A DNA stretch of 64,000 nucleotides from Candidatus Saccharimonadota bacterium (GTDB lineage: Bacteria > Patescibacteriota > Saccharimonadia > Saccharimonadales > JACOTW01), in assembly GCA_016178135.1 (NCBI GenBank), contig JACOTW010000003.1:472-64471 (forward strand). Reading direction: 5' to 3'. Shown here piece after piece: positions 14 through 33,933 of the stretch. The notes below the pieces were generated by a model. It ran no database searches and was not told the DNA's origin. It worked only from the letters and a program-made list of their open reading frames with translations. The translations under genes and the position numbers were made by a program. Each line of letters starts with the position of its first letter. The first letter of the stretch is position 1.

Positions 14-571
14 GTGGCCGAAGAACTGGCCGCATTGATGGTGTTTTGTTGGCAGCTCGCCCCATCAACAGGCGACCTGAAAATTAATAATCAAAGTGAA
101 CGTGAAATTGCTCAATTAGTCGTAAAGAGCCTGCATGAACAAGCATCAAATGACAGCGACACGGCGCAAATACAATATTCTTGGGCTACGAAGAATGTTA
201 TGCGGACATTAGGTATGGCGATTGTAGCACTTCAAGACAAGGATTATGCGACTAGGGATTTTACGGTCAATTTCAATTCTTTGCTTCACGCGAGCGGTTC
301 AGCCAAGCCAGGAGGCAAGGGGATGATAAGGGGCTCTAATGACGACGAGCACCTACGTAAAATTAACCAATTAGCAGCATGCAAGGGTTGTAGTCCGGAG
401 ATGTTTCAACCGGAAACCGAAGCCTCGCCTATAATAGAAGAAGCAAAAAAAGTATGTAGTGGGTGTGGCGTAAGAGATGATTGCCTGGATTATGCAATTT
501 CACATAATGCAACGGGTATTTGGGGTGGTACAACCGATCAGGAAAGAAAAAACTTGGCAAAAAAACACTAA
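14..571 (+). CDS. WhiB-like (Wbl) Fe-S transcription factor with ~110-aa N-terminal extension; possibly 5'-partial at window edge
   Basis: C-terminus CKGC..(n)..CSGCGVRDDCLDYA...GIWGGTTDQER matches the 4-Cys + G[VI]WGG signature of WhiB family. Confidence 0.65.
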   Translation: MAEELAALMVFCWQLAPSTGDLKINNQSEREIAQLVVKSLHEQASNDSDTAQIQYSWATKNVMRTLGMAIVALQDKDYATRDFTVNFNSLLHASGSAKPGGKGMIRGSNDDEHLRKINQLAACKGCSPEMFQPETEASPIIEEAKKVCSGCGVRDDCLDYAISHNATGIWGGTTDQERKNLAKKH

Positions 572-572
572 A

Positions 573-700
573 TAGGACTTACGCACTTTCTTACCACACC
601 AGACTTAACCTATGTGGCTACAAACGGCCCATGTTCTCTCGGTGTAGCTATGGCTACCCCTCCAGAACCTGAACCGTTTTCGCTCACCCAGCTACACTTT
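573..700. repeat. Degenerate copy of the window-wide MITE-like palindromic repeat (variant subfamily, same as 11376-11520)
   Basis: taggacttacgcac...ggctacaaac...tctcggtgtagctatggctacc...gttttcgctc; aligns by eye with canonical copies and with 11376-11520. Confidence 0.6.
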
Positions 701-704
701 GGCA

Positions 705-733
705 TTGGCAACAAAGTGCGAAAGTCCTATAAA
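705..733 (+). promoter_or_regulatory. Recurring promoter-like box TTGGCA-17nt-TATAAA (core AAAGTGCGAAAGTCCTATA) upstream of leuS
   Basis: Same AAAGTGCGAAAGT(C/T)CTATA(T/A)AA box recurs at ~10897, ~36270(-), ~36411, ~45558; sigma70-like spacing here. Confidence 0.5.
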
Positions 734-771
734 AATAAGTTTACCATGTGATAAGGTGTTATTTGTAAACT

Positions 772-3708
772 ATGAAACGTTATAATCCTAAAGAAATCGA
801 GCCAAAGTGGCAAAAAGTTTGGGAAGATCGAAAGATCTATCAAGCCTCTGAAGATCCAGCTAAGCCTAAACGCTATGTGTTGGAATATTTTCCGTACCCC
901 AGTGGTGCGGCCATGCACGTTGGGCATGTACGCAATTACACCATAGGTGACGTTGTGGCACGTTTTTACCGGATGCGTGGCTACAATGTTATGCATCCGA
1001 TGGGTTGGGATGCATTTGGACTGCCCGCCGAAAATTACGCCATTAAAAACAACATTAGCCCCCAGCAAGCGATAGCCGAGAACACTACCAGGTTTAAGCA
1101 ACAGCTTATGCGGATGGGTTTTAGCTATGATTGGTCGCGCGAAATCAATAGCTCTGACCCCAGTTATTATAAGTGGACGCAGTGGTTTTTCAAGCTGTTG
1201 TTCGATCGCGGGCTGGCGTACCAAAAAGAATCTCCCCAGTGGTGGTGCGAAACGGACAAAACGGTATTGGCAAACGAGCAGGTAGAATCCGGCAAGTGCT
1301 GGCGTTGCGGCAATGAAGTGACCAAAAAATCTCTCAAACAATGGTTTTTCAAGATTACAGATTACGCCGATAGATTAGTAGAAGATTTGGAAGATTTGGA
1401 TTGGTCAGATGCGATCAAATCCATGCAACACAATTGGGTTGGACGGAGCAAGGGTGCCGAGATCACTTTTGCAGTAGAAACTAGCAAGCAGAAAACAGCA
1501 AAGGAAGAAAAAATCATCGTCTTTACGACTCGGGCCGATACTTTGTTTGGGGCAACCTTCATGGTACTAGCCCCCGAGCACCCATTGGTGATGAAAATTG
1601 CGAAAGATTCGCAAAAATCAGAGGTGGAAAAGTACGTTAAACAGGCCCAGGTAAAGAGCGACATTGAACGGCAAGACACTGACCGCGAGAAAACAGGTGT
1701 ATTTACCGGTGCTTATGCAATTAACCCCGCCAACAACGAGAAGATTCCAATCTGGATAGCAGACTATGTATTGTACGGTTACGGTACAGGGGCCATCATG
1801 GCTGTGCCGGCTCATGATGAACGTGACTTTGAGTTCGCCGTGAAGTTTGATCTTCCGATCCGACAGGTATTTATGGAGTCGGGAGATGACCCGGTCAATC
1901 CACCGCAAGAAAAATTCAAGATGATCAAACGCAAAACAGTTGTTGTCCACCTGAGAGATCGTTCATCCGGCAAGTATGCGTTGCTTAATTGGCACGGGAC
2001 ATTAGAGGGTATCACAACGGCGATAATGGGAGGTATTGATGAGGGCGAGACGGCAGAAAATGCCGCGCTGAGGGAGATATCAGAAGAAGCAGGGATACAT
2101 AATGCCAAGATTGTAAAAACTGCCAGATGGATAAGCGCAGCCACCTACTGTGCATCGCACAAACAAGTAAATAGAAAATCAATTTCTACGGCTGTCTTAG
2201 CAGAAGTCGATAACTTGTCAAAACAGACCGAGGTAGCTGATTATGAAAAAAAGACCCATACCCTCATCTGGGTTACAGGTGATGCCGTAGAAGAATCGCT
2301 AATACCGATTAACCAAAAGCAAATCTGGAGTTATTTACAAAACGAGACCGCACTAACAGGTGAAGGTGAAGTCATTAACTCAGGAGAGTATGATGGTCTA
2401 TTGACATCAGATATGCGGGAAAAGATCGTGGCTGATTTGGCCAAGAAAAAAGTCGGCAAGGAAGTCGTCAATTACAAAATGCGCGATTGGCTCATTAGTC
2501 GGCAACGGTATTGGGGGGCACCAATTCCTATCATTCATTGCCCTAAAGATGGTGCCGTGGCGGTGCCAGACGATCAGTTACCGGTGGAACTGCCAGAGGT
2601 CAAGAGCTATCAGCCGACTGGCGAGGGGGCTAGCGTGCTGGCTGGCGTGGAGGAATGGGTCAATACAACTTGTCCTAAATGTGGCGAACCAGCCAAAAGA
2701 GAAACAGACACCATGGACGGTTTTGCTTGCTCCAGCTGGTATTTCCTGCGTTTTGCCGATCCGCATAATGATGTAGAGCCATTTAGCCCCCAAAAAGCCA
2801 AGTTTTGGTTGCCGGTAGATGATTACATCGGTGGAGCCGAACACGCCGTGATGCATTTGCTGTATGCTCGTATGTGGACCAAGGTTATGTATGATGCTGG
2901 ACTTGTAGAATTCAAAGAACCGTTTACGGCACTCCGCAACCAAGGTATGATTTTAGCTCCTGATGGTCAAAAGATGAGCAAGTCCAAGGGTAATACTATT
3001 GAGCCAGATGAGTTATTAGATCAAGGTTATGGTGCGGATTCGGTGCGTCTCATGGAACTTTTTATAGGCCCATGGGATCAATCAGCAGCCTGGAGCGTTA
3101 AAGGTTTGGGCGGTACGTATCGTTTTTTGAATCGTGTGTGGACTATCTGTCAAGAGCATATGACAGAAGTTACTAAGCTAGAAACTGAAGATCAAACTCA
3201 AAAAGTAGAAAATCAGGATATTAGCAAAGAATTGCGACGGGCTGTTCATCAGGCAATTAAGCGGGTTAGTGTAGACTTGCACGATATGGGCTTCAATACG
3301 TCTATAGCTACGCTTATGGAATTGACTAACGAGCTATATAAACTTAAAAGAAGCTATCCGGTAGGTTCGGCTGAATGGCACGATGCTTTAAGTATTTTGT
3401 TGCAATTGTTGGCACCGTTCGCACCCCACATTACCGAGGAATTATGGCAACAGTTAGGTGGACAAACATCGATACATACCAGCTCGTGGCCATTATGGGA
3501 CGATGCCCTGTTGGTGAATAACATCATGAAAATTATTGTGCAGATCAATGGTAAGTTACGGGCTGAAATCCATATTGCCACTGGTGCAAGTGAGATACAA
3601 GTTCTAGATACCGCTAAGGCTAACGAACGAGTAGCAAGCTATCTTCAGGATCACAAAATCAAGAAATCTATATATGTACCAAATAGACTAGTGAATTTTG
3701 TAGTCTAG
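772..3708 (+). CDS. leuS: Leucyl-tRNA synthetase, 978 aa, carrying an extra Nudix-fold insertion
   Basis: N-terminal HMGH class-I motif region (PYPSGAAMHVGHVRNYTIGDV), KMSKS (QKMSKSKGN), overall LeuRS architecture. Confidence 0.95.
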   Translation: MKRYNPKEIEPKWQKVWEDRKIYQASEDPAKPKRYVLEYFPYPSGAAMHVGHVRNYTIGDVVARFYRMRGYNVMHPMGWDAFGLPAENYAIKNNISPQQAIAENTTRFKQQLMRMGFSYDWSREINSSDPSYYKWTQWFFKLLFDRGLAYQKESPQWWCETDKTVLANEQVESGKCWRCGNEVTKKSLKQWFFKITDYADRLVEDLEDLDWSDAIKSMQHNWVGRSKGAEITFAVETSKQKTAKEEKIIVFTTRADTLFGATFMVLAPEHPLVMKIAKDSQKSEVEKYVKQAQVKSDIERQDTDREKTGVFTGAYAINPANNEKIPIWIADYVLYGYGTGAIMAVPAHDERDFEFAVKFDLPIRQVFMESGDDPVNPPQEKFKMIKRKTVVVHLRDRSSGKYALLNWHGTLEGITTAIMGGIDEGETAENAALREISEEAGIHNAKIVKTARWISAATYCASHKQVNRKSISTAVLAEVDNLSKQTEVADYEKKTHTLIWVTGDAVEESLIPINQKQIWSYLQNETALTGEGEVINSGEYDGLLTSDMREKIVADLAKKKVGKEVVNYKMRDWLISRQRYWGAPIPIIHCPKDGAVAVPDDQLPVELPEVKSYQPTGEGASVLAGVEEWVNTTCPKCGEPAKRETDTMDGFACSSWYFLRFADPHNDVEPFSPQKAKFWLPVDDYIGGAEHAVMHLLYARMWTKVMYDAGLVEFKEPFTALRNQGMILAPDGQKMSKSKGNTIEPDELLDQGYGADSVRLMELFIGPWDQSAAWSVKGLGGTYRFLNRVWTICQEHMTEVTKLETEDQTQKVENQDISKELRRAVHQAIKRVSVDLHDMGFNTSIATLMELTNELYKLKRSYPVGSAEWHDALSILLQLLAPFAPHITEELWQQLGGQTSIHTSSWPLWDDALLVNNIMKIIVQINGKLRAEIHIATGASEIQVLDTAKANERVASYLQDHKIKKSIYVPNRLVNFVV
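1867..2400 (+). other. Nudix hydrolase domain inserted in-frame inside leuS (after the CP1/editing region AHDERDFEFAVKFDLPIRQV)
   Basis: Perfect Nudix box GGIDEGETAENAALREISEEAGI (GX5EX7REUXEEXGU); segment ~130 aa longer than the equivalent E. coli LeuRS linker. Confidence 0.7.
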
Positions 3709-3999: not shown

Positions 4000-4473
4000 G
4001 TGGCATCTAATCGTCATCTTGGCCGTATAATTGCACTTCAGACGCTCTATGAACAGGATTTTCGCAGTGAATGCGAAGATAAGGGCTTTAATCTGGTCGC
4101 GGTGCTTGAACGCAATATTGGCAGGTATCGTGATATGCTTGACGGTGGTGATTTTACTGAAAGTCTGGTTAATGGTGTCAACGCGAAAGAAGTCGAATTA
4201 AATAAGTTGCTTAAGCCCATAGCCCCAGAAAGACCAATTGATCAGATTGCTCGCATGGACCTTATAGTATTGCACATTGGCGTTTACGAACTTCTATACG
4301 AACAAGGTACACCGCCAAAAGTGGTTATTAATGAGGCAGTTGAGCTGGCAAAATCTTTTGGCGGAGATAATTCTTCAAAATTTATCAACGGCGTATTAGG
4401 TACGCTGCTAAAACAAATAGAAGCCACTAAATCTACACCCAAATCAGTTAAAATTAAGAAAGACAATAAATGA
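4000..4473 (+). CDS. nusB: Transcription antitermination factor NusB
   Basis: IALQTLYE..., C-terminal [13 protein letters not shown] motif typical of NusB. Confidence 0.85.
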
Positions 4474-4486
4474 ACACTAATACTCT

Positions 4487-4646
4487 ACTGGACTTACGCA
4501 AAGCTCCCTCATCCCCAGACCAACTAACCTCGGCTACAAACAGTTTTTCCTCTCTCGATGTACCTTCAGGTACCTCTCCTTCAGATAAAACTGTTTTCGC
4601 TCGAGCTGATTCGCCCTGGGAACGGGGGATTTTGCATAAGTCCAGT
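4487..4646. repeat. MITE-like palindromic repeat, canonical copy (orientation B)
   Basis: ctggacttacgcaaagctccc..ccccagaccaac...ctctcgatgtaccttcaggtacctctccttcag...gctcgagctga..cctgggaacggg..ttttgcataagtccagt; terminal inverted repeats and central hairpin. Confidence 0.9.
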
Positions 4647-4735
4647 TTAGAATCATATAAACTGGATCAGATTCGACACACTATTCATAATACATATTAC
4701 GCAAGACACTCTAGGCAAGCGCTCGAGGTACAATC

Positions 4736-5233
4736 ATGAAACGACCAAAGCCAATCCAAGGTTTTAAAAAATTTGTTACTGACCGTAAACCAGTAATTAA
4801 CGAGGTAGTTCGTGAACCAACCGCCGGTGGAGTGATTTTTAGACATAATGATAAAAATGAAATCGAAATTCTACTTATTCAAGATGCCAGAAATCGCTGG
4901 ACCATTCCAAAAGGTCATATTGAAGAAGGCGAATCAGCGAAGCAGACTGCTGAAAGGGAAATTCGCGAAGAGACAGGCTTGGAGGAAGTGAAGATTTTGA
5001 GCTGGCTTGGTAAAATTAATTTTCGCTACCGTCGTCAACAAAGCCTGGTGCTTATGACAACCGAAATTTTTCTAGTAAAGGCTCTTAACAGGACCGATAA
5101 AATAAAGCCTGAAGATTGGATGAACGATATTAAATGGTTCACGGCAACCGAGGCGCTTGATAAAATTGAATATGATGATATAGGCAAGTTGATGTTGTTA
5201 GGACTAAAAAAGATTAGACAGGACAAGTTTTAA
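4736..5233 (+). CDS. Nudix hydrolase (MutT family)
   Basis: Nudix box GHIEEGESAKQTAEREIREETGL. Confidence 0.85.
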   Translation: MKRPKPIQGFKKFVTDRKPVINEVVREPTAGGVIFRHNDKNEIEILLIQDARNRWTIPKGHIEEGESAKQTAEREIREETGLEEVKILSWLGKINFRYRRQQSLVLMTTEIFLVKALNRTDKIKPEDWMNDIKWFTATEALDKIEYDDIGKLMLLGLKKIRQDKF

Positions 5234-6206: not shown

Positions 6207-6365
6207 ACTCGACTTACGCAAAACTCCTCCATCCCCAGATCGAATTCTATCGGCTGCAAACAGTTTTTCTGTCCTCGATGTAGCCACAGCTACCTCTCCG
6301 CCAGATAAAACTGTTTTCGCTCGAGATAATTCACTCTGAGAACGGACGATTTTGCGTAAGTCGAG
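6207..6365. repeat. MITE-like palindromic repeat (orientation B, 'ctcgac/gatcgaattctatcggctgcaaacag' subfamily)
   Basis: actcgacttacgcaaaactcctccatccccagatcgaa...gatgtagccacagctacctc...ctgagaacggacgattttgcgtaagtcgagt. Confidence 0.9.
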
Positions 6366-6372: not shown

Positions 6373-7218
6373 TTATTTCATTAATAACAGCCCAATCAGG
6401 GCAATGAGACAACCAAGTATTTTGCGCTTTATGTGGTCTCGCTCGTTTAACCAGAGGGCTGCGGCCCCAAAAATAACCACAATCTTGAAAGTTGTAACTG
6501 CCGAAACAATACTCAAGTTGCCCACAATATTTAATAGCGTTACCCAGGAGATGGCTTGTAAAAACTTTAATCCGCCAGTCACCAGGGTATCTTTTCGGTT
6601 GTAAGTGGAATGGCTGCGAGTCAACAAGGTTATAAATCCCAACCCCAAGCATTGTGACCACCAGCTCAACAAGGTTCCTGCAGTAAAACCGGTTGTTTTC
6701 ATAAGTGCGCGCTCAGCGCTCAAAAGTATTCCAAGCAGAACTCCACTTGCCAACATCATTAAAAAGTATTTATCAAACTTGAAACGGCCAAGCTGGTGGT
6801 TTTTGGATACAATAATAACAGATGCAAGTAGTAGAGTCGTTCCAATGACTTGCAAAGGCGTTAGACCTTCACCTAGGAATAGCGTAGCAATGATAATGGT
6901 AACTGGCGTGTAGATATTGACAATTATGTTGGTCACAGTGGCATCTACGTGTCGCTGAGCAGTGTAGTTGGTAATAAAGTACGCTGAACCAGCACCCGCG
7001 CAAGTCAAAGCTAATAAAACCAAATGGGCCGTGTTGCCATGAATCCGAAAAGGCGAGAATAATGGCAACATCAAGCCGAGAACGGCAATTATAAGAGTGG
7101 TATGAAATGCAAAGGAAATTTGGTTGTCCTGTTCGCGTTTGGTTGCCAGCCAGCGCCTTTGCAACGGAGAAGCCGAAGCGGCAACAAAATAAAAAAGGTA
7201 GGCGAACAGAGTCATCAT
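6373..7218 (-). CDS. EamA/DMT-superfamily membrane transporter (10-TM)
   Basis: Two-repeat hydrophobic architecture; LFLGEGLTPLQVIGTTLLLASVII-type EamA helix motifs. Confidence 0.55.
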   Translation of the reverse strand: MMTLFAYLFYFVAASASPLQRRWLATKREQDNQISFAFHTTLIIAVLGLMLPLFSPFRIHGNTAHLVLLALTCAGAGSAYFITNYTAQRHVDATVTNIIVNIYTPVTIIIATLFLGEGLTPLQVIGTTLLLASVIIVSKNHQLGRFKFDKYFLMMLASGVLLGILLSAERALMKTTGFTAGTLLSWWSQCLGLGFITLLTRSHSTYNRKDTLVTGGLKFLQAISWVTLLNIVGNLSIVSAVTTFKIVVIFGAAALWLNERDHIKRKILGCLIALIGLLLMK

Positions 7219-7231
7219 ATGAGCTTAGTAT

Positions 7232-7391
7232 ACTGGACCTGTCGCAAAATCGCCCGTTCCCAGGCTAAATCAGCTCGAGCTGGGAGTAGTTTGACCGAAG
7301 GAGAGGTAGCCATAGCTACATCGAGAGAAGACAGACCACTATCAGTCGATACCAGTTGGTCTGGGGATGGGGGAGCTTTGCATAAGTCCAG
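7232..7391. repeat. MITE-like palindromic repeat (orientation A), abutting the start of the 6373-7218 gene
   Basis: actggacctgtcgcaaaatcgcccgttcccaggc...ctgaaggagaggtagccatagctacatcgagagaag...ctggggatgggggagctttgcataagtccag. Confidence 0.9.
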
Positions 7392-7434
7392 CTGACATTG
7401 CGGGATAACTTGTGGGCTTTTTTGGGATTTTTTG

Positions 7435-7997: not shown

Positions 7998-8024
7998 ATG
8001 TAATGGTTGTGGTATGAAGTCTTA

Positions 8025-8065
8025 CTGGACCTGTCGCAAAACTCCCTCGTTCCCAGAGTGATTTT
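8025..8065. repeat. Solo terminal fragment of the MITE family
   Basis: tactggacctgtcgcaaaactccctcgttcccagag then breaks off. Confidence 0.6.
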
Positions 8066-8069
8066 ATAT

Positions 8070-8404: not shown

Positions 8405-8447
8405 TGAGGCCAATAAATTAAAGAGACAATTTTGCATTATAACGTAC

Positions 8448-8479: not shown

Positions 8480-8518
8480 CACATATAAAGGATAAGCATA
8501 AAAAGGAATACATAGCTC

Positions 8519-21895: not shown

Positions 21896-21898
21896 TGC

Positions 21899-25537: not shown

Positions 25538-27367
25538 ATGATGTTGAAGCAGCAGGAGAAAAAACGTGAAATTATTGATGTTGTCGCACGACTGTTGAGC
25601 TCGCGAAAATTTTTCTATATAACGATTGTTTTTTTTGTTTTTCAGGCAGCCTGGATAGCTTTGTCCGGACTTTATCCTATGGCTTTTGATGAGAATACTC
25701 ATCTTGGAATTATCAGGATATATGCTAATCATCTTTCACCTTTTTGGTCGAGACAGCCGGAAGGTACTGTTGTGTTAGGGGCTATTACTCGCGATCCCTC
25801 GTATTTTTACCATTACATTATGAGTTTTCCGTATAGGCTGATTGATGATGTTTTTCGCACGGAAATGTCCCAAGTGTTGGTACTTAGATTTATTAGTATA
25901 GTCTTTTTTGTTTGTGGCCTATTGCTTTATCGTCGGGTTCTCAAATACAGCAAAGCATCAGATCTAACTGTCAATGTCGTAATGGCGCTTTTGGTATTAA
26001 CGCCGGTTGTGCCATTTTTGGCTGCTCAAATCAATTACGACAATTTGATATTTGCACTTTGCGGACTGATTATCTTGCTAACATTGCAAATATCGGAAAG
26101 ACTTAACTGGACTTACGCGAAATCGCTCGTTCCTGGGGATAATCAGCTCGAGCGAGAACAGTCTCATCTGAAAGAGAAGCGCGTAAAGGTGCATCGAAAG
26201 AGAGAAAACTGTTTGCAGCCGAGGTTAGTCGGTCTGGGGATGAGGGAGCTTGCGACAGATCCAGTTGAACAGGGTCAAATTGACGCCAAACGAATCCTAT
26301 TGGTAATTATAGTTGGCTTGTTTGCCAGTATTGTGAAATATGCGTTTTTGCCAATTTTTATTGCAGTTTTAGTATGGTTAAGTTTTGATTTGAAGAAATA
26401 TGGTGGTGGTGCGATATTTAGACTGTTTGTGAATTCTTTTCGGAAGATTGTATGGCCAGTCAAAACCATACTTGTCATATTATTGATTATTGGAGCCGGA
26501 TTATTTACGGAACGCTACGGCATAAATACGCTACGCTACCATACGCCCACACCGGAATGCGACCAAGTTCTAAGTATTGAACAGTGCTTAGAATACGGAC
26601 CGTGGAGACGAAATTATCTCACCCATCAAGACAAAATCAACGGAAAACTTACTGTCAATAATGCTAGTGACCCTATTTCTTATACACTCAAAACATGGGC
26701 TGAAACAATGGTTTATAAATTGTTTTTTGTGAGTAATGGGCCGGCGAGTCAGTTTTGGATTGGTAATCCACTACCTGTACCGCTTGCTTTAGCCACGGGG
26801 TTTGGGATTGTTGGGGTTCTCTTGGCTTTGTGCTGGCAGAGAGAGTTACGCAAAAAATATAAACTGGGTCTTTTTGGTTTATTGACGGGTGTTTATGTAA
26901 TGGTTTTATGGGGTCAGAATTACATGGATTTTTTGCATATTGGTTATCCGTTTGCTATACAAGGACGATATTTGCTACCTATTTTGCCATTCGTATATCT
27001 TATATTAGTTCTAGCTATGAAGGCTCAACGACACACGAGTTTCGCACTTAGCCATTGCCCCAGATCACACCTGAACGGCTACAAACTTCCATCCCTCACT
27101 CAGCATAACTACAGTTATGCCTCCCTCGGATTAAAAGTTTTCGCTTGTTCAGTTGCAACCTGGCATCAACGGCTAAGTGCGAAACTCGTGCGACAGCTAA
27201 AAATAGGATTGGCGGTTACGATTTTGTTTATTTTGTTTATTCAGGGCGGTGGTCTGGTAACTTATATTGTTCGGAGTGACCAAACATGGTATTGGCCCAA
27301 TCAAACGATCGTGAATATCAATGATACCGCCCGCAAAATTCTTAAAACGTTTATTATTGGTTCTTGA
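25538..27367 (+). CDS. Large polytopic membrane protein, possible GT-C-fold glycosyltransferase (Pmt/ArnT-like); carries in-frame repeat insertions
   Basis: >12 predicted TM helices; first-loop AFDENTH (DE-type motif); adjacency to GT2 Ppm-like gene. Confidence 0.35.
   Translation: MMLKQQEKKREIIDVVARLLSSRKFFYITIVFFVFQAAWIALSGLYPMAFDENTHLGIIRIYANHLSPFWSRQPEGTVVLGAITRDPSYFYHYIMSFPYRLIDDVFRTEMSQVLVLRFISIVFFVCGLLLYRRVLKYSKASDLTVNVVMALLVLTPVVPFLAAQINYDNLIFALCGLIILLTLQISERLNWTYAKSLVPGDNQLEREQSHLKEKRVKVHRKRENCLQPRLVGLGMRELATDPVEQGQIDAKRILLVIIVGLFASIVKYAFLPIFIAVLVWLSFDLKKYGGGAIFRLFVNSFRKIVWPVKTILVILLIIGAGLFTERYGINTLRYHTPTPECDQVLSIEQCLEYGPWRRNYLTHQDKINGKLTVNNASDPISYTLKTWAETMVYKLFFVSNGPASQFWIGNPLPVPLALATGFGIVGVLLALCWQRELRKKYKLGLFGLLTGVYVMVLWGQNYMDFLHIGYPFAIQGRYLLPILPFVYLILVLAMKAQRHTSFALSHCPRSHLNGYKLPSLTQHNYSYASLGLKVFACSVATWHQRLSAKLVRQLKIGLAVTILFILFIQGGGLVTYIVRSDQTWYWPNQTIVNINDTARKILKTFIIGS
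26105..26265. repeat. MITE-like repeat (orientation A, diverged) in-frame inside membrane-protein ORF (read in a third frame)
   Basis: actggacttacgcgaaatcgctcgttcctggggataatcagctcgagcgagaacagtctc...ggtctggggatgagggagcttgcgacagatccagt. Confidence 0.85.
27034..27190. repeat. Variant palindromic element with 24-bp perfect terminal IR (cacgagtttcgcacttagccattg / caatggctaagtgcgaaactcgtg) and MITE-like core; in-frame in the same ORF
   Basis: IR read directly; core ggctacaaac...aaaagttttcgct resembles MITE interior; the right arm recurs inside the mosaic copy at 45301-45452. Confidence 0.7.
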
Positions 27368-28298
27368 GGTATGATCGTTTGGCGAGTTCCAATTGGTCTT
27401 CGGCAAGAATTCGGTTGGTTCTGGTGAGATCTGCCAAGACTCCTAGTACAAATGCCAAAAAAGCCCCAATCAATAATATGGCACCAAGAACTAATGATTG
27501 CAGATGGCTACCTGGTCGACTATCAATCATAAACCATACGTAACGAATGAATGGAATAAGTCCCAGGGCTAACAGTGTGCCACCTAGACTAAGGAACACT
27601 GCATACGGCCTATACATTGTGTAGGCTCGAATGATTGCCATCGCGGACTGAAAGACGTGCTCCCGCGTAGACTTAAACAGACGTGATTCGCGAGTTTTCG
27701 GATTGGTCGTAATAGGTATGGAGGTGATTGCCAGCTGTTTATTGCCGGCTTGAATTATGGTCTCCATGCAGTAGCTGAATCTTGTTATGGTGTTGAGTTT
27801 TATAATTGCTTCGCGTGAATATGCTCTAAAGCCGCTGGCAGCATCGGGTATGTCAGTTCCGGCAGCAATGTTGACGATTCGACTCCCCAGTTTTTGTAAG
27901 ATTTTTTTAAAAGGCGAAAAATGTGCAATGCGATCTGTTTGGCGATTTGCTACGACGATATCTGCTCGTCCTTCGATAATTGGTTGTATAAGGTTTCCGA
28001 TTTCGCCACTTGGGTATTGGTTGTCCCCATCGGTGTTAACCACGATATCTGCGCCCATTTCCAAGGCTTTTAGAACGCCATCGTGAAATGATTGTCCAAG
28101 TCCCATATTGCGCGTGTGCCGTACAAAGTGGTTGATGCCTAGTTGCCGAGCAACCTTGATGGTGTCATCAGTTGAGCCGTCATCAATAATCAATATTTCA
28201 ATTGTATCAATTCCTGCGATTTTTTTAGGTATGTCGTGCAGAACAAGCGACAGTGTTTTTGCCTCATTAAGACAGGGAATTTGAATAACTAATTTCAT
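27354..28298 (-). CDS. GT2 glycosyltransferase, polyprenol-phosphate mannose/glucose synthase-like (DPM1/Ppm1-type) with C-terminal TM helices
   Basis: IPCLNEAKTL...IIDDGSTDDT...VNTDGDNQYP motifs (DxD, GT-A fold). Confidence 0.75.
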   Translation of the reverse strand: MKLVIQIPCLNEAKTLSLVLHDIPKKIAGIDTIEILIIDDGSTDDTIKVARQLGINHFVRHTRNMGLGQSFHDGVLKALEMGADIVVNTDGDNQYPSGEIGNLIQPIIEGRADIVVANRQTDRIAHFSPFKKILQKLGSRIVNIAAGTDIPDAASGFRAYSREAIIKLNTITRFSYCMETIIQAGNKQLAITSIPITTNPKTRESRLFKSTREHVFQSAMAIIRAYTMYRPYAVFLSLGGTLLALGLIPFIRYVWFMIDSRPGSHLQSLVLGAILLIGAFLAFVLGVLADLTRTNRILAEDQLELAKRSYLKNQ

Positions 28299-28336: not shown

Positions 28337-28410
28337 GGCTTCGGGACTAGGATTCGAACCTAGATTGCTGGGACCAGAACCCAGTGTCCTACCGTTAGAC
28401 GATCCCGAAT
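28337..28410 (-). tRNA. tRNA-Gln (anticodon CUG), CCA encoded
   Basis: Reverse complement folds as cloverleaf: acceptor ttcggga/tcccgaa, D gtct/ggac, anticodon stem ctggg/cccag with loop ttCTGgt, T-arm ctagg-ttcgaat-cctag, discriminator G, CCA. Confidence 0.85.
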
Positions 28411-28413: not shown

Positions 28414-28624
28414 TCATTCGACCTAAAAACTCCTCCATACCTAGACCGAATCCCATCGGTTATACCGGACTGACGAAAAACTCCCCCATCCCCAGACCAA
28501 CTAATCTCGGCTGATAGCGGTCTGTCTTCTCTCGATGTAGCTAAGGCTACCTCTCCTTCAGTCAAACCACTCCCAACTCGAGCTGATTTGCCCTGGGAAC
28601 GGGCGATTTTGCGACAGGTCCAGT
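28414..28624. repeat. Partial MITE fragment (28414-28469) followed by full MITE-like copy (orientation B, 28470-28624)
   Basis: …aaaaactcccccatccccagaccaactaatctcggctgatagcggtctg…gatgtagctaaggctacctc…cctgggaacgggcgattttgcgacaggtccagt. Confidence 0.9.
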
Positions 28625-29908: not shown

Positions 29909-30121
29909 CTACTCACCACCTTTTTGGACATAACCCTTCACAAACTCTTCAGCATTTTCTTCTAGTACTTCATCAATCTCATCCAGTAAACCGTCAAGTT
30001 CTTCTTTAATACCGGCACCCTTTGTGGCTGTTTCACCAACGCTATGCACTTGGTCTTCATTGGTTTCCTCTTCTCTACGGCGCTCTGGTGTTGGTACTCG
30101 TTTTTGTATACGTTCTGCCAT
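29909..30121 (-). CDS. pup: Prokaryotic ubiquitin-like protein Pup homolog (70 aa) ending in GGE
   Basis: C-terminal LLDEIDEVLEENAEEFVKGYVQKGGE aligns almost residue-for-residue with mycobacterial Pup (LLDEIDDVLEENAEDFVRAYVQKGGQ); strong RBS GGGAGG. Confidence 0.8.
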   Translation of the reverse strand: MAERIQKRVPTPERRREEETNEDQVHSVGETATKGAGIKEELDGLLDEIDEVLEENAEEFVKGYVQKGGE

Positions 30122-30248: not shown

Positions 30249-30881
30249 GTGGCTGACCTAAAAGTAACCAAAACAGGAGTTAATTCAAAAATGATACAAA
30301 TTGGTAGCAAGAAATTGATGCTGGCATCACTAGTATTAATCTTGACTATAGCGATTGGTGGTGGTGCCTACTGGTGGCGTGATAAACAGGCCAAAGACGA
30401 TCGAGCTAAAAATGATAATGAAATTGTACAATTGCGACAAAAAGTGGCCAACCTAGAAAAACAACTAATTGATTCTAAGGCTAAATTGGCTACGGAGAAG
30501 CCAGTCGTTACAAATACAGCCCTTAATCAGGCCATGATAGACAATGTCAAAGCCGTTTTTGCTACCGGTAACACGCAGCCACTGGAGGGTTACATGACCG
30601 CCAAAGTAACGGTTATTATTGCTGCTTCAGAGGGTTTGGGTGAGCGTACTGCAGCGCAAGCGACCGCCGACATCACGTCCTATGTAGGTGGTGCCACTGA
30701 TGCTTGGAATTTTTCATTGCCGACAGCTACTATTAACGCCTACAAGAGTGGTGATTACGGCCAGTATTTTCCAGATGGTGCGTTGGTAGGTAAGTCAAAC
30801 AACATGGTTATTTCGTTTACGTTTAACGATGTGGGTAAAATTAGTACGGTTTTTATGACTAATAGTGCGCAACTTCTTTAA
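30249..30881 (+). CDS. Hypothetical membrane-anchored protein (single N-terminal TM, coiled-coil, extracytoplasmic domain); likelier start ATG 30291
   Basis: Hydrophobic LMLASLVLILTIAIGGGAYWW segment; RBS caggag before 30291. Confidence 0.4.
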   Translation: MADLKVTKTGVNSKMIQIGSKKLMLASLVLILTIAIGGGAYWWRDKQAKDDRAKNDNEIVQLRQKVANLEKQLIDSKAKLATEKPVVTNTALNQAMIDNVKAVFATGNTQPLEGYMTAKVTVIIAASEGLGERTAAQATADITSYVGGATDAWNFSLPTATINAYKSGDYGQYFPDGALVGKSNNMVISFTFNDVGKISTVFMTNSAQLL

Positions 30882-31259: not shown

Positions 31260-31345
31260 TGGAGCAAAAGTGACACAAATCCTTAATTTGCTCATATAGC
31301 CATTCATCATGGAAACTTTTGTACTTTATAATAATTAGCGAGTAA

Positions 31346-31457
31346 ACTGGATTTGTCGCAAAATCGCTTGTTCCCAGAGCGAAAGTTCTATTTTATCTGA
31401 AGGTACATCGACCTGTTTGTCAGTTTGGGGATGATGGAATTTTGCGACAGGTCCAGT
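31346..31457. repeat. Shortened (~112 bp) MITE derivative (orientation A)
   Basis: actggatttgtcgcaaaatcgcttgttcccagagcgaaagttc...gtttggggatgatggaattttgcgacaggtccagt. Confidence 0.8.
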
Positions 31458-32251
31458 ACAATGTTCACAGTAATAGAAAGGCCTTCAAATTGGCAGATTA
31501 CAGACATGTTATTTTCTTTTCACTAGTTGGCGGAGTTTTTTCGTTAATCGGTGGAATTATATTATTGAGCAAAGAAAAATACGCCCAAGCATTAGCAAAA
31601 TACGCTACGCCGTTTGCGGCGGGGGCGTTATTGGCAGCTGTATTTTTGGATCTTATCAAAGAAGGTTTACAGGAATCCAATGCCAATACGGTGCTGACTT
31701 CGGCGTTGATTGGAATAGTAGTATTCTTTTTTGCGGAGCGGTTTTTGCATTGGTTTCACCACCATCATCAGCACGATGGCGCACCCGATGCCAGCGTTTC
31801 TTTGATAATTATTGGCGATACACTTCATAATGCGCTAGATGGGATAGCTATCGCGGCGGCATTTTTGGTCAGTATCCCAACTGGAATTGTTACGACATTT
31901 GCGGTGGCGGCCCATGAAATACCGCAGGAAATTGGTGATTTTGGCTTGTTATTACACAAGGGGCTGTCCCGAAAACGAGTGCTACTTGTCAATGTCTTGA
32001 GTGCCTTAGCAACTACCATGGCTGCCGTGCTGACGTTTTGGCTGGGCAGTGCTGACAGATTGCCGATAGGTGTTCTATTGGGACTGAGCGCCGGTCTATT
32101 GCTATACATTGCCATGAGCGATATTATCCCTGAAATCCATGAGCGATCAGACAACCAAAGACTGTTCGAGTGGCAACCGATTTTGCTCATGATTGGGGCA
32201 CTGGTTGTGGCCGTTTGCATCAATTTGGCACAACGATTTATTTCTGGATAG
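31442..32251 (+). CDS. ZIP-family divalent metal transporter (ZupT-like); start uncertain (possible TTG at 31442 or 31484)
   Basis: His-rich loop HHHHQHDG, HNALDG and HEIPQEIGDF ZIP signature helices. Confidence 0.75.
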   Translation: MRQVQYNVHSNRKAFKLADYRHVIFFSLVGGVFSLIGGIILLSKEKYAQALAKYATPFAAGALLAAVFLDLIKEGLQESNANTVLTSALIGIVVFFFAERFLHWFHHHHQHDGAPDASVSLIIIGDTLHNALDGIAIAAAFLVSIPTGIVTTFAVAAHEIPQEIGDFGLLLHKGLSRKRVLLVNVLSALATTMAAVLTFWLGSADRLPIGVLLGLSAGLLLYIAMSDIIPEIHERSDNQRLFEWQPILLMIGALVVAVCINLAQRFISG

Positions 32252-32266
32252 AGTACAATATTGTAG

Positions 32267-33343
32267 ATGATTGTAGTGGTTATTATTTTGGGGGTTTTGA
32301 ATGTGGGGTTATTGCTGTTTTTGATTGCTAAAAAGTCAAATGCTTCTGAAAGTGGTTCGGCGCAAATGCTCAAGGCTGATCTGACAGAGCTCAATAAAGG
32401 AGTTTTGGAATTAAAGGATTCTCTGAACGATAAAATTAGCGACAAGTTGGATAAAAGCCAAAAGCACATTAGTGATAGTATCCAGCGCCAGTTCGAACAA
32501 TCGGCCAAAATTATCACCGATATATCCGGTCGTTTGACTAAACTGGACGAGACAAACAAGCGGGTTGTAGATGTGGCGGATGAGCTAAAGAGCCTCCAAA
32601 ATGTGCTTCAAAATCCCAAACAGCGAGGAGTTTTGGGGGAGTTTTATCTAAAGCAAATACTCGAAAATATGTTACCGCCGGGGACTTTCGAATTGCAATA
32701 TCGCTTGGCGGAAGGGCTGGTGGTGGATGCCGTGATCAAGCTAGATGATAAGTTTTTGCCGATAGACAGCAAGTTTTCATTGGAAAATTACAACCGTTTA
32801 GTAGAAGCTAAGCCCGCCGAGCGTCCAGCGCTGGAAAAATTATTCAAAGAAGATCTCAAAAAACGTATTGATGAAACCGCCAAATATATTTTGCCCAAAA
32901 AAGGCACGCTGGAACAGGCGTTGATGTTTATCCCTAGCGAGGCAATTTATTATGATTTGTTGGCCAATAAGGTTGGAGTAGGTGGCGTGAACGGCCGGGA
33001 TTTGATGCATTATGCCGCCGTAGACAAGCGCGTAACGGTGGTTGGCCCGAGTACGTTATCCGCCATGTTGCAGATTGTTTCCCAGGGATTAAATAGTCTG
33101 GAAATTCAAAAAGACACCGAGCTCATCCGCAATAACGTCGAGCAATTGGGCAAACACCTTAAAAATGTCGACGGCTATTTTATCAGACTAGGCAATTCAC
33201 TCGGCGCGACTGTCGGGCATTTCAATAGCGCCCATAAAGAACTAGGCAAAGTCGATAAAGACGTGATAAAGATCAGTGGTGGCACAACACAAGTCGAACC
33301 CATTTTACTTGACCGACCAACTGTCGGGGAGGACATAGACTGA
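32267..33343 (+). CDS. rmuC: DNA recombination protein RmuC
   Basis: N-terminal TM + coiled-coil, RmuC core (…QRGVLGEFYLKQILENMLPPGTFELQY…). Confidence 0.8.
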   Translation: MIVVVIILGVLNVGLLLFLIAKKSNASESGSAQMLKADLTELNKGVLELKDSLNDKISDKLDKSQKHISDSIQRQFEQSAKIITDISGRLTKLDETNKRVVDVADELKSLQNVLQNPKQRGVLGEFYLKQILENMLPPGTFELQYRLAEGLVVDAVIKLDDKFLPIDSKFSLENYNRLVEAKPAERPALEKLFKEDLKKRIDETAKYILPKKGTLEQALMFIPSEAIYYDLLANKVGVGGVNGRDLMHYAAVDKRVTVVGPSTLSAMLQIVSQGLNSLEIQKDTELIRNNVEQLGKHLKNVDGYFIRLGNSLGATVGHFNSAHKELGKVDKDVIKISGGTTQVEPILLDRPTVGEDID

Positions 33344-33933
33344 TGAAAAACTGGACTATTGAAAAAGCATATCCGTACGTATTGCTCGTCACTGGGTTTT
33401 TGGGGCTAGTTGCTTCATTCATCCTGACCTATGACAAAATCATGATCCTGAAAGACCCTAATTTCATCCCTGACTGCAATATTAATCCAATTTTCAGCTG
33501 TGGTTCGGTCATGAGCAAGCCACAAGCTGAAGTATTCGGCATGCCCAACACGCTATTTGGGATAATCGCATTTAGCGTAATTGTAACCATAGCGGTCGCA
33601 ATGTTGTTCGGCGCAAAGTTTAAGCCGCTATTTTGGAAACTGCTTTTCGCTGGAACTTTGGCGGGGCTTGCTGGCGTTATCTATCTATTTTTCCAGGGGA
33701 TATACCGTATAAATGCCATTTGTCCTTATTGCGCTATGACCTGGGTCGTGGTCGTGGCGTTAGTCGTTTATACGTTTGTCTGGAATATAAAGCAAAAATA
33801 CATGACAGTGCCAAAAACTTTTGAGCAGTCGGCCAAGTTTGTTGTCCAAAACCACATCGGTGTCCTTGTGGTTATATATCTAATAATTCTTGGTTTAGTA
33901 TTGCAGCATTTTTGGTGGTATTTTGGTAGCTAG
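33343..33933 (+). CDS. Vitamin K epoxide reductase (VKOR) family membrane protein
   Basis: Loop cysteine pair CNINPIFSC and active-site CPYC in TM helix; ~5 TM helices. Confidence 0.7.
   Translation: MKNWTIEKAYPYVLLVTGFLGLVASFILTYDKIMILKDPNFIPDCNINPIFSCGSVMSKPQAEVFGMPNTLFGIIAFSVIVTIAVAMLFGAKFKPLFWKLLFAGTLAGLAGVIYLFFQGIYRINAICPYCAMTWVVVVALVVYTFVWNIKQKYMTVPKTFEQSAKFVVQNHIGVLVVIYLIILGLVLQHFWWYFGS

Follow-up and report, generated by a model that had tools for sequence, protein, structure and literature searches.

Actinobacterial-type genes in an environmental Saccharibacterium probably represent three layers of different age

The window, a stretch of 64,000 nt on contig JACOTW010000003.1, belongs to a genome with 43% GC (GCA_016178135.1) that carries the NCBI label Candidatus Saccharibacteria. 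The same species was also assembled as GCA_016196105.1 and GCA_040960765.1. The labels and the CPR-style carbon metabolism showed the organism to be Saccharibacteria-like, as an earlier note on this DNA had considered it might be. The gene families named there were present at or near the positions it gave: a WhiB-like gene, NiSOD/SodX, Pup, VKOR, a GT2 and GT-C pair and a GC-rich tail-fibre-like gene. It had described them as a cluster, but the genes were dispersed over 34 kb amid approximately 30 housekeeping genes and formed no island. The features were as follows.

14-571, forward strand: WhiB-like (Wbl) regulator (Pfam PF02467), the last 185 aa of a protein with 230 aa
8024-8404, no strand assigned: composite copy of a dispersed palindromic element, arms split by 175 nt, with 18-nt perfect inverted-repeat termini
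8447-8518, forward strand: conserved cassette, the part with promoter and 5'UTR, including a poly-G tract (G11) at 8463-8473
8519-10135, forward strand: chimeric tail-fibre-like gene, 538 aa, low-GC N-terminal module and GC-rich body
10135-10263, forward strand: small 42-aa ORF in the tail of the GC-rich segment (sequence reading, GC profile)
10287-10898, forward strand: strain-specific 612-nt insertion with an IS630-type HTH ORF at 10373-10699
13188-13577, forward strand: Ni superoxide dismutase, sodN (Pfam, TIGR02753, nickel hook, propeptide)
13522-13851, forward strand: SodX-like maturation peptidase (S24/S26), in overlap with the sodN 3' end (best NCBIfam match TIGR02754)
17905-22792, reverse strand: cyoE-cyoDCBA quinol oxidase operon, context, part of an oxygen-tolerance kit
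25538-27367, forward strand: GT-C-type membrane protein (Pfam, DUF2142) with a 159-nt palindromic element inside
27354-28298, reverse strand: GT2 polyprenyl-phosphate sugar synthase-like glycosyltransferase (Pfam PF00535)
29909-30121, reverse strand: Pup, 70 aa, C-terminal GGE (Pfam, TIGR03687)
30249-30881, forward strand: membrane-anchored coiled-coil protein, 210 aa, divergent from pup
33343-33933, forward strand: VKOR-family thiol oxidoreductase (Pfam), between rmuC and an MGH1-type glycoside hydrolase gene
48500-48650, forward strand: second "GC-rich patch", the C-terminus of a 267-aa hypothetical protein

The thresholds of curated models were passed by WhiB, NiSOD, Pup and VKOR, whereas SodX remained below its NCBIfam cutoff. 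The Ppm/Pmt identity of the glycosyltransferase pair was rejected, as neither protein matched a Ppm1 or PMT model, leaving an analogy only. NCBIfam matches of the GT2 protein were AglJ, PpgS and DPM-like, all sub-threshold. The GT-C ORF was broken in-frame by one palindromic element at 26107-26264. With the element, DUF2142 scored 27.5 bits and fell below the cutoff; after in silico removal it scored 37.2 bits, above the cutoff, over profile positions 123-395. VKOR and the pair had been counted as actinobacterial hallmarks. Neither family is specific to Actinobacteria; VKOR is widespread.

The palindromic element comprised 159 nt (53 codons) and formed an imperfect palindrome with a strong hairpin, present in approximately 17 copies per 64 kb. 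It appeared to lie in-frame in genes and to be read in one frame inside four ORFs, and its insertions varied between strains. Rickettsia palindromic elements (RPEs) are selfish palindromes that also occur in-frame in protein-coding genes. The element of the window resembled RPEs in its palindromic form, its in-frame position within ORFs and its strain variability. It differed from them in its Saccharibacterial host and in having no sequence relationship. The composite copy was part of an inserted island that separates rpsP from the KH-protein gene; the S16 and KH genes are adjacent in the related loci L010, L092 and L093. The ORF within the 612-nt insertion matched Pfam HTH_29 and HTH_Tnp_IS630, representing the N-terminal fragment of a transposase. 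This insertion was missing from the 99%-identical strain L132.

Base composition separated one gene from all others. ORF 8519-10135 was the only outlier among 66 genes, with z values of +5.2 for GC, +4.8 for GC3 and -3.0 for codon use. WhiB, NiSOD/SodX, Pup, VKOR and the GT2/GT-C pair were native in GC, GC3 and codon use, which leaves the proposed tie between the hallmark genes and GC-rich patches unsupported. The patch at 8800-10260 is real and represents recent foreign high-GC DNA. The other, given as 48520-48650, covered approximately 130 nt coding for a Gly/Arg/Ser-rich C-terminus. Its GC excess stems from amino-acid composition, and it is no evidence of transfer.

Within the tail-fibre-like gene, which has 59% GC overall, GC jumped from 0.49 to 0.64 near position 8800 and remained high until approximately 10260. 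The N-terminal module (aa 1 to approximately 76) was low in GC and the body (aa 77-518) had 59-66% GC. The module is common to Saccharimonadales proteins with varied C-termini and tail-fibre PHROG matches and to viral contigs, 59-68% GC. The body was 74% identical to protein P0272 on a phage-like contig with 69% GC (DNA identity 74% over 1267 nt), and P0272 adjoins a virion structural protein matching phrog_37549 (E 1e-26). Neither Pfam nor PHROG contained a family matching the 538-aa protein, and modelling of its structure reached a pLDDT of only 32. Like modular tail fibres and receptor-binding proteins of phages, the gene joins a conserved N-terminal module to a swappable C-terminal body, and tail-fibre PHROGs are matched by its relatives. 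Unlike phage tail fibres, the gene and its paralogue P0289 lie outside any prophage, each solitary among housekeeping genes, and the protein belongs to no matched family. By its composition, the fibre body is evidently one recent acquisition and the only piece still showing a foreign GC-rich origin. The donor appears to have been a phage from some high-GC organism. The 42-aa ORF downstream, which had no PHROG match, was by its position in the segment evidently co-transferred with the fibre body.

A cassette shared with the paralogue spanned positions 8447-8584, including the first approximately 22 codons, with 92% identity over 138 nt. TTGACC and TAAACT flank the spacer that holds its poly-G tract, the only G/C run of at least 8 in the window. 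The spacer comprised 20 nt with G11 in the window and 18 nt with G9 in strain GCA_040960765.1, where a promoter scan called it, a consensus match that could arise by chance. Upstream of the paralogue the tract was also G9. In Neisseria and Haemophilus, homopolymer tracts within the promoter spacer control phase-variable surface-protein genes. The position of the tract between -35 and -10 and its strain-dependent length are alike here, with the difference that phase variation of the fibre gene is deduced from two strains only. The length difference suggests on/off expression by slipped-strand mispairing.

The WhiB-like gene extends past the window start, and the full protein (P0001) has 230 aa. 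It scored 59.3 bits against PF02467 (cutoff 23.6), and its best PDB match was Streptomyces WhiB (8dy7, E 7e-13). An unusual N-terminal extension of approximately 160 aa precedes the canonical 65-aa Wbl domain, which carries four cysteines as C-x(n)-C-x2-C-x5-C and a GIWGG motif. The four cysteines and GxWGG were unchanged in three aligned orthologues. The protein aligned across the whole domain with Streptomyces WhiB and M. tuberculosis WhiB1, sharing the motif of four cysteines, the turn at GxWGG and the basic C-terminus. Unlike the [4Fe-4S] Wbl transcription factors of Actinobacteria and actinophages, it is encoded by a Saccharibacterium, its extension is kept only in syntenic orthologues, and the aromatic "FF" patch is replaced by "MFQ" (FF or FY in the orthologues). 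In the literature the Wbl family is described as confined to Actinobacteria and actinophages (PMC6282962, PMC13013590), and all 936 phage records with Wbl-domain matches were actinophages.

Gene order placed the WhiB-like gene among old residents. Locus L010 showed the order Mur ligases, Ddl, Aminotran_4, WhiB, LeuRS, NusB, NUDIX, RNase III, S16 and KH. Its housekeeping proteins were 57-80% identical to those of the window, whereas its WhiB was only 31% identical but alike in architecture throughout, with the same domain layout. The position between Aminotran_4 and LeuRS was common to the window, L010 and L135, and composition was native in both genomes checked. WhiB was missing at the syntenic site in L092; a reading as ancestral gene with loss rests on two positive lineages.

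NiSOD scored 150.4 bits with Pfam and 157.5 bits with TIGR02753 (cutoff 90). A 9-aa propeptide precedes the nickel hook HCDLPCGVY. The SodX-like protein reached 50.7 with TIGR02754 (cutoff 63.25). Streptomyces SodN/SodX has the identical nickel hook, a propeptide and an adjacent overlapping peptidase gene, and its mature SodN is 59% identical; nothing essential differed apart from SodX falling under the equivalog cutoff. Downstream of trmD, sodN was also found in L092, L093 and L132. The synteny from trmD to sodN-sodX was retained in L092 and L093, where NiSOD was 85-86% identical and SodX orthologues adjoined sodN (59% in L092, 44% in L093). The best 120 NiSOD relatives were 80-90% identical, and those carrying names were Saccharibacteria, Patescibacteria or Saccharimonadales except for one Gammaproteobacteria and one soil metagenome label. 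A grouping with CPR or other low-GC lineages, named beforehand as evidence against an actinobacterial origin, was thus partly found for NiSOD. Identity was 59% to Streptomyces, 64% to Nonomuraea and 39-40% to proteobacterial plasmid and viral copies. Since divergent Saccharibacteria keep the gene order around both WhiB and NiSOD/SodX, these genes appear to be old residents, by now vertically inherited within the clade.

Pup and VKOR showed a different distribution. Pup scored 74.9 bits with Pfam and 66.1 bits with TIGR03687 (cutoff 41.45) and was located 43 nt upstream of mgsA/rarA. The divergently transcribed 210-aa protein, lineage-specific like pup, had no Pfam or NCBIfam match. Among the best 80 Pup loci from 185,579 species genomes, 78 were Actinomycetota, mostly Acidimicrobiia, with one Myxococcota and one Nitrospirae. 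The scan matched exact 8-residue words and is limited to the best loci, which biases the signal towards Acidimicrobiia and may have left Pup genes of Saccharibacteria undetected. Identities of 50-63% reached into the N-terminus. Pup thus resembled Acidimicrobiia Pup over its full length, including the C-terminal helix and GGE end. In contrast to the actinobacterial system, it is an orphan in a low-GC CPR genome: mpa, dop, prcBA and pafA were all absent within approximately 74 kb, and no flanking gene was co-transferred.

VKOR scored 131.3 bits with Pfam and showed a CPYC motif together with paired loop cysteines. It overlapped rmuC and the hydrolase gene by 1 nt and 4 nt. In L095 (RmuC 79% identical) these two genes overlap directly by 4 nt, and in L125 (RmuC 87%) they are approximately 250 nt apart, in both cases without VKOR. 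On 35 metagenomic contigs related through RmuC, none of Pup, the 210-aa protein and VKOR was detected. VKOR shares its fold signature, CxxC and loop cysteines with an actinobacterial subtype, often plasmid-borne, of bacterial VKOR, a functional DsbB replacement. Identity to that subtype was only 35-48%, and the thioredoxin domain fused to cyanobacterial VKOR was missing. The 94 plasmid matches, from a collection that is a skewed sample for VKOR, included 89 records from ten listed genera, all Actinobacteria. The closest were in Streptomyces, Rhodococcus and Gordonia, with a best identity of 44.7%. For both genes an actinobacterial affinity thus stood, almost wholly in the case of Pup and mostly or wholly among plasmids for VKOR, while a recent actinobacterial donor did not, at 45-63% identity to any actinobacterial sequence found. 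By their distribution, Pup and VKOR are evidently lineage-specific gains and younger insertions. They are apparently of actinobacterial type ultimately, yet native in composition, which implies either that the transfer was not recent or that it came via another low-GC genome.

Altogether, the actinobacterial-type genes are real and probably form three layers of different age, neither one cluster nor one process. The oldest would comprise the WhiB-like gene with sodN and sodX. A younger layer would consist of single-gene, lineage-specific insertions, VKOR and, upstream of mgsA, Pup with the coiled-coil protein. The third would be one recent event, in which the fibre gene received its body, as a replacement or an acquisition, from a phage gene pool of high GC, while the promoter, 5'UTR and approximately 22 codons of the cassette were kept. 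The earlier note had instead suggested repeated gene flow from an actinobacterial host into an epibiotic or parasitic partner. As a rival reading, such flow would be fairly recent, would come from the host of this very organism and would have left the GC-rich patches as visible scars. In the collections searched, where most protein-database matches carried no taxonomy, the closest relatives of WhiB, Pup, VKOR and NiSOD outside Patescibacteria were indeed Actinobacteria or actinophages, one high-GC segment is recent, and cultivated Saccharibacteria grow on Actinobacteria (PMC10633639). Such host flow is nevertheless unlikely. The hallmark genes are native in composition, the conserved order of WhiB and NiSOD/SodX in divergent relatives speaks against a single process, identities to Actinobacteria were only 31-64% and neighbouring genes were not co-transferred. 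Nothing identifies the host as donor. According to published reconciliations, Saccharibacteria have received few transfers from beyond CPR, and none was seen within experimentally profiled pairs of host and epibiont (PMC8406219).

Other low-GC Patescibacteria as immediate donors of Pup and VKOR, with Actinobacteria as the remote source only, are a tentative possibility. This would fit the native composition of both genes, which are recent insertions when set against lineages whose RmuC is 79-87% identical, and transfer within CPR dominates (PMC8406219). However, no Saccharibacterial Pup was among the best 80 loci from species-representative genomes, the syntenic site lacked Pup in the 35 related loci, and the 90% clusters of Pup and of VKOR contained this species alone. 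Purely vertical descent, without any transfer, from a Terrabacteria ancestor that CPR and Actinobacteria have in common would explain the stable positions and native composition of WhiB and NiSOD/SodX. It is very improbable, given the patchiness even in close relatives (WhiB missing in L092; Pup and VKOR in 35 of 35 related loci). Of 150 matches listed from a search of 1.84 billion proteins, only approximately three could be recognised as long Wbl orthologues, and reviews do not report the Wbl family outside Actinobacteria. Contamination, a chimeric assembly or a low-GC actinobacterium is suggested by the family names alone and hardly credible. The genes are native in composition, lie scattered between CPR-type housekeeping genes on a 144-kb and a 654-kb contig and were recovered in independent assemblies and sequencing runs. 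The chimeric gene differs by one residue between two strains, and housekeeping synteny agrees with 0.78-1.27 Mb contigs typical of Saccharibacteria.

Under the three-layer reading, the window is probably ordinary chromosome of an oxygen-exposed environmental Saccharibacterium. The cyo operon was syntenic in L092, and over 50% of environmental Saccharibacteria are known to carry it (PMC8406219). Streptomyces-type SodN with SodX has been reported before from "T. rhizospherense", a soil Saccharibacterium (PMC6031116), and sodN near the cyo operon is a likeness of the window to soil Saccharibacteria. The GGE terminus of Pup would be ready for ligation without Dop deamidation, with no ligase nearby (approximately 74 kb). 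WhiB and sodN/sodX would stand beside NDH-2, an FAD-linked oxidase and the cyo quinol oxidase. The WhiB-like protein, encoded upstream of leuS, may hold a [4Fe-4S] cluster and act as a redox or NO sensor. By analogy with the Streptomyces enzyme, SodX would cleave the propeptide and expose His1 of the nickel hook for superoxide removal. VKOR would make disulfides in exported proteins using quinone, which would be re-oxidised by the quinol oxidase.

The mean GC content of the window was approximately 43%. Its proteins had exact matches in two NCBI assemblies labelled Candidatus Saccharibacteria bacterium, one with a 143,928-bp contig and HY003_ locus tags, the genome being GCA_016196105.1 by paralogue look-up, and one with a 654,487-bp contig (GCA_040960765.1). 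The same proteins were present on several independent read-set assemblies. DNA identity between the two strains was 98.6-100% in the compared regions. An exact-sequence look-up of S16 gave no match on record. The assignment to Saccharibacteria was based on the NCBI names of the exact-match proteins and on a gene order common to labelled genomes, and relatives were labelled Saccharimonadales or Patescibacteria. The right half of the window encoded a class I aldolase, a split transketolase fused to Rpe, RpiB and a DUF5674 protein, a carbon metabolism typical of CPR. Together with the NCBI labels and the shared gene order, this metabolism therefore confirmed the earlier view of the organism as Saccharibacteria-like. 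The fusion was a single ORF (51406-52896) joining ribulose-phosphate 3-epimerase to the N-terminal half of the split transketolase, the C-terminal half being the next gene.

An earlier note on this DNA had described a cluster of Actinobacteria-hallmark genes, which was linked to GC-rich patches and read as repeated gene flow from an actinobacterial host. The features concerned were as follows.

14-571, plus strand, WhiB-like regulator
8519-10135, plus strand, GC-rich tail-fibre-like gene
13188-13577, plus strand, sodN (NiSOD)
13522-13851, plus strand, SodX-like peptidase gene
29909-30121, minus strand, Pup gene
33343-33933, plus strand, VKOR gene

The hallmark families were present according to Pfam and NCBIfam, but the genes were spread among housekeeping genes rather than clustered. 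They were spaced apart by leuS, nusB, rnc, rpsP, trmD, the cyo operon, mgsA, rmuC and others, and form no island. A glycosylation pair had also been labelled Ppm/Pmt-like. Its GT2 protein matched only generic polyprenyl-phosphate sugar synthase models of NCBIfam, below cutoff, and the membrane neighbour was a DUF2142 protein (GT-C-like), not PMT (PF02366). The label is an analogy only, because no Ppm1 or PMT model was matched by either protein.

GC, GC3, synonymous-codon likelihood and tetranucleotide distance were scored for 66 genes. The sole outlier in this codon-usage and tetranucleotide check was the 538-aa ORF at 8519-10135, with a GC of 0.59 (z +5.2), a GC3 of 0.69 (z +4.8) and a codon-use z of -3.0. 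WhiB, SodN, SodX, Pup, VKOR, GT2 and DUF2142 did not depart from the range of the housekeeping genes. For the second GC patch (48500-48650), a foreign origin was ruled out; it was the Gly/Arg/Ser-rich end of a hypothetical protein, an effect of amino acid composition. The hallmark genes are therefore not tied to the GC-rich patches as had been proposed.

SodN matched TIGR02753 with 157.5 bits (cutoff 90) and carried a nickel hook of the HCxxPCGxY type, read as MFRIKPVYA|HCDLPCGVY after a short propeptide. The gene for the SodX-like S24/S26-type peptidase adjoined and overlapped sodN. The peptidase gave Pfam S26/S24 matches above threshold, and its best NCBIfam match, TIGR02754, reached 50.7 bits, below the cutoff of 63.25. 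The order trmD...sodN-sodX recurred in two related loci, L092 (777-kb contig) and L093 (1.27-Mb contig), with 85-86% identical NiSOD in both. On L092, NDH-2, a FAD oxidase and cyo came next after sodN-sodX. The top 120 among 8000 scored NiSOD relatives were 80-90% identical, and those with names were Saccharibacteria, Patescibacteria or Saccharimonadales except one 'Gammaproteobacteria' and one 'soil metagenome'. NiSOD identity was 59% to Streptomyces, 64% to Nonomuraea and 39-40% to a Novosphingobium plasmid copy and two viral copies. A concatenated four-protein query, searched through six exact 8-residue words, returned two NiSOD-like viral loci only. The synteny and the identities and names of the relatives thus indicate a NiSOD of actinobacterial type but long resident in the Saccharibacterial clade. 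P0078, a NiSOD 81% identical to that of the window, came from a MAG labelled 'Gammaproteobacteria bacterium', a label that is probably due to a binning error or a further transfer. By analogy with characterised families, SodX would cut the SodN propeptide, leaving His1 and two Cys free to bind nickel, and the nickel-loaded SodN would then clear superoxide. Oxygen would be consumed by NDH-2, the cyo oxidase and haem O synthase with scavenged quinone and haem. Both a nickel SOD and the cyo operon are already on record for soil Saccharibacteria (PMC6031116, PMC8406219).

The WhiB-like protein matched PF02467 with 59.3 bits (cutoff 23.6); no NCBIfam model was matched. C168, C193, C196 and C202 as well as G213-W215-G216-G217 were invariant across three orthologues, giving the pattern C-x(n)-C-x2-C-x5-C and a G[VI]WGG turn, and the C-terminus was basic (RKNLAKKH). 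The Wbl family has been described as exclusive to Actinobacteria and actinophages (PMC6282962, PMC13013590), and the literature search found no mention of Wbl proteins in CPR bacteria. Against this statement, the whiB gene was chromosomal and syntenic in Saccharibacteria contigs. Family membership stands, because the restriction is a statement on distribution and not a structural criterion.

A word-index search with WhiB matched only the query itself. Among the listed HMMER matches from 1.84 billion representative proteins, only the query was below E 1e-30, and the remaining ones aligned with the 65-aa Wbl domain only, at 37-57% identity. One match, P0127 (229 aa), shared the long architecture of the protein. 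It was encoded on the metagenomic contig L010 (53.5% GC) in the order Mur ligase-hydrolase-Mur ligase-Ddl-Aminotran_4-WhiB-LeuRS-NusB-NUDIX-RNase III-S16-KH. This is the order of the window, and the upstream part agreed with a contig of the same species. Housekeeping proteins of L010 and the window were 57-80% identical, compared with 31% for WhiB; despite this low identity, the four Cys, GxWGG and several N-terminal WhiB positions were invariant. The gene had the composition of its own genome in both the window and L010. On L092, LeuRS directly followed Aminotran_4 with no WhiB between them. The simplest reading is that WhiB is an ancestral, fast-evolving gene that was lost in some lineages. 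Wbl-domain relatives in cultured phages comprised 936 records, all of them actinophages. As a member of its family, the protein may sense redox state or NO via a [4Fe-4S] cluster and alter transcription via region 4 of the primary sigma factor; rpoD was not in the window. A further locus, L009 (GCA_039738615.1, 40.7% GC), encoded at 10001-10534 a 177-aa protein with two tandem Wbl domains beside a type I restriction-modification system, possibly a further Wbl encoded outside the classical high-GC Actinobacteria. The LeuRS of the window (772-3708) had 978 aa with a NUDIX domain (about aa 374-530) inserted after the editing domain; its orthologues on L010 and L092 had 811-814 aa and no such insert. 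The insert was ruled out as a copy of the neighbouring NUDIX gene, with which it had only the Nudix box in common.

Pup matched PF05639 with 74.9 bits and TIGR03687 with 66.1 bits (cutoff 41.45), and ended in YVQKGGE. Its gene, 43 nt upstream of mgsA/rarA, was a single-gene orphan at its locus. A tblastn search of the window and the 10 kb before it, with the ORFs of five Pup loci from Actinobacteria as queries, found no homologue of mpa, dop, prcB, prcA or pafA. RmuC, encoded between pup and VKOR, served as anchor to retrieve 35 related loci from metagenomes, with flanking sequence of up to 10 kb. Neither Pup, the neighbouring 210-aa membrane protein nor VKOR was found in these loci, even at E < 1, and the 90%-identity clusters of Pup and of VKOR contained this species only. 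A scan of one genome per species (185,579 species) by exact 8-residue words returned at least 540 Pup relatives. Of the best 80, 78 belonged to Actinomycetota, chiefly to Acidimicrobiia (Microthrixaceae, Ilumatobacteraceae and others), and one each to Myxococcota and Nitrospirae; all were from loci with 56-74% GC. Identity was 50-63% and reached into the N-terminal MAER.QK..P.P.R stretch. Because the scan needs exact 8-residue words and lists the best rows only, the signal at class level is no more than a lead. Pup had no match in plasmids. Co-transfer with its neighbours was ruled out, as no neighbour gene of the window was present in the 80 actinobacterial Pup loci. If PafA is encoded elsewhere in the genome, Pup-GGE might be ligated to lysines.

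VKOR matched PF07884 with 131.3 bits and had a CPYC active site and loop cysteines of the C45/C53 type; all NCBIfam equivalogs were below cutoff. On L095, a related locus with 79% identical RmuC, rmuC overlapped a convergent MGH1-type hydrolase gene by 4 nt, and on L125 (RmuC 87% identical) the two genes were about 250 nt apart. VKOR occupied exactly this junction in the window. A tblastn search against 72,556 plasmids gave 94 VKOR matches, the best being 44.7% identical over 96% of the protein. Ten genera, all Actinobacteria, were listed for 89 of the 94 records, among them Rhodococcus, Streptomyces, Corynebacterium, Paenarthrobacter, Arthrobacter and Gordonia, and many of the plasmids were conjugative or mobilizable. 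VKOR would oxidise cysteine pairs of exported proteins and pass the electrons on to quinone.

The relatives of Pup and VKOR and their absence from the 35 loci therefore indicate that both are of actinobacterial type and were gained after the split from the sampled relatives. Given their native composition and modest identity to any actinobacterial sequence found, passage through an intermediate low-GC genome or origin from an unsampled donor is a better fit than a fresh acquisition from a high-GC host. The actinobacterial affinity on which gene flow from a host had been proposed was thus upheld for the families; the timing, the mechanism and the host as donor were not.

Within the window, recent gene flow from a high-GC source is solid only for the fibre-like gene. 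On L010, L092 and L093, rpsP was directly followed by the gene for the KH protein; in the window, 3 kb were inserted between them. Within the insert, a composite palindromic element (8024-8404) was accompanied by the 538-aa gene, an ORF of 42 aa and an IS630-type HTH fragment, the last on a 612-nt stretch absent from the sister strain. GC jumped at about 8800, within the 538-aa ORF. Residues 77-518 were 74% identical to P0272, the only close relative of the fibre body among 5.8 billion proteins, and the DNA was 74% identical over 1267 nt. The gene for P0272, on a contig of 69% GC, came directly behind one that matched phrog_37549 ('virion structural protein', E 1e-26), whose nearest cultured relatives were structural proteins of Bacillus siphophages. 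The source of the GC-rich body looks like a phage of a high-GC organism. No match to cultured phage genomes was found for the gene or P0272, and a viral scan with the GC-rich body found nothing. To seek the host of the high-GC viral contigs, their capsid and large structural proteins were searched and gave no matches or uninformative ones to cyanophages and Vibrio phages.

The first 40-60 residues of the protein (MARLPTPGSDNGTWGDILNGYL..H..DGTLK) were common to 29 other proteins with unrelated C-termini. Several of these were from Saccharimonadales, and some carried pectate-lyase-3 or BppU_N domains in Pfam terms. The module also opened small ORFs in two viral contigs (IMG/VR) of 59% and 68% GC. 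The 538-aa protein itself had no Pfam, PHROG or phage-genome match, and its AlphaFold model, made with no alignment, had a pLDDT of 32. Three tested Saccharimonadales relatives matched tail-fibre PHROGs; with the viral contigs, these matches make the name 'tail-fibre-like' reasonable. At L130 6624-19995 (Saccharimonadales contig DASTWA010000002.1), a fibre-like relative, P0274, was encoded in a run of about 12 unannotated genes of the same direction, whose products included Kelch beta-propeller, Big_6 and Laminin_G_3 proteins. This run could be a surface-protein or tail-like module. Between rnc and rpsP, the window carried an EamA-family transporter gene (6373-7218, minus strand). The two flanking genes were adjacent or nearly so on L010 and L093, and L092 had a different small ORF there; the transporter gene is another lineage-specific insertion.

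A paralogue of the fibre-like gene, P0289, was found in the same genome with 56% GC in a 44%-GC locus beside rpsB-tsf-mazEF, giving at least two paralogues per genome. Both genes were solitary and outside prophages. They had in common a 138-nt cassette, 92% identical, comprising the promoter, the 5'UTR and the first ~22 codons, with a poly-G tract between TTGACC and TAAACT. In the window this tract was G11 (8463-8473), which gave a 20-nt spacer that was not called by the promoter scan. In the sister strain it was G9 (L132 4394-4402) with an 18-nt spacer that was called. Upstream of P0289 it was also G9 (L129 9947-9955). From two strains and the match to a consensus promoter, the arrangement resembles known slipped-strand phase variation. 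Just outside the window, a further G11 (L135 9588-9598) lay about 400 nt upstream of WhiB, beside a divergent 133-aa ORF.

The fibre-like gene probably encodes a variable protein of the surface or for attachment. A wider reading, which we consider improbable, would make the solitary fibre-like genes phase-variable host-recognition adhesins of an epibiont, each a Saccharibacterial anchor onto which a receptor-binding body was grafted out of the pool of phages that infect high-GC and possibly actinobacterial hosts. It would also let the orphan Pup, whose GGE end is ready for a ligase, work on or via the pupylation machinery of the host. Were the adhesin part true, the cell would choose and switch hosts by borrowed phage specificity.

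A 159-nt imperfect palindrome was present in about 17 copies in the 64-kb window (36 arms, iterative nhmmer), with a strong predicted hairpin of -66 kcal/mol (z -6.5). Copies were located at 4488-4645, 6208-6365, 7233-7391, 8073-8403, 12952-13110, 13857-14014, 19110-19265, 23384-23541, 23594-23751, 24663-24820, 25317-25472, 26107-26264, 28425-28623, 45315-45451 and 60942-61101, in addition to partial copies. The small 'hypothetical' ORFs 4470-4739, 7102-7395, 12941-13186, 13821-14009 and 60682-61104 consisted mostly of this element and are probably not genes. The element was also inside long ORFs, twice each in the GT1 and LPG-synthase-like genes, once in DUF2142 and in the N-terminus of CyoD. 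In GT1 and the LPG-synthase-like gene it was read in one frame as the same 53-aa peptide, and the CyoD copy read as a related peptide. Its removal in silico raised DUF2142 above the Pfam cutoff and extended the match from 72 to 273 profile positions; LPG_synthase_TM and GT1 scores did not gain, so in-frame insertion is only partly supported. Copies differed between the two 99%-identical strains. The element resembles Rickettsia palindromic elements, and the literature search found no report of such elements in Saccharibacteria. The only Rfam match was a tRNA gene (28339-28409, minus strand) between GT2 and mgsA, with copies of the element on both sides and 1.5 kb from the Pup insertion.

In terms of method, the case shows that a hallmark family found together with a GC patch is not the same as a recent transfer from a host. 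For soil Saccharibacteria, the combination of NiSOD/SodX with VKOR and the quinol oxidase gives an account, already in the literature, of how these bacteria cope with oxygen. The oxidative-stress part (NiSOD, cyo) is thus known; follow-up is merited by three additions to kinds already known, namely the Wbl of Saccharibacteria, the orphan Pup and the chimeric fibre-like gene. Pup without nearby ligase or proteasome genes raises the question of whether pupylation is present or Pup is put to other use. The putatively phase-variable chimeric gene offers a concrete candidate for host attachment that can be put to the test. In Saccharibacteria, a Wbl that is inherited vertically and carries an N-terminal extension widens the view of a family held to be exclusive to Actinobacteria and actinophages, and from its sequence it is a candidate redox-sensing regulator in a group whose regulation is almost unknown.
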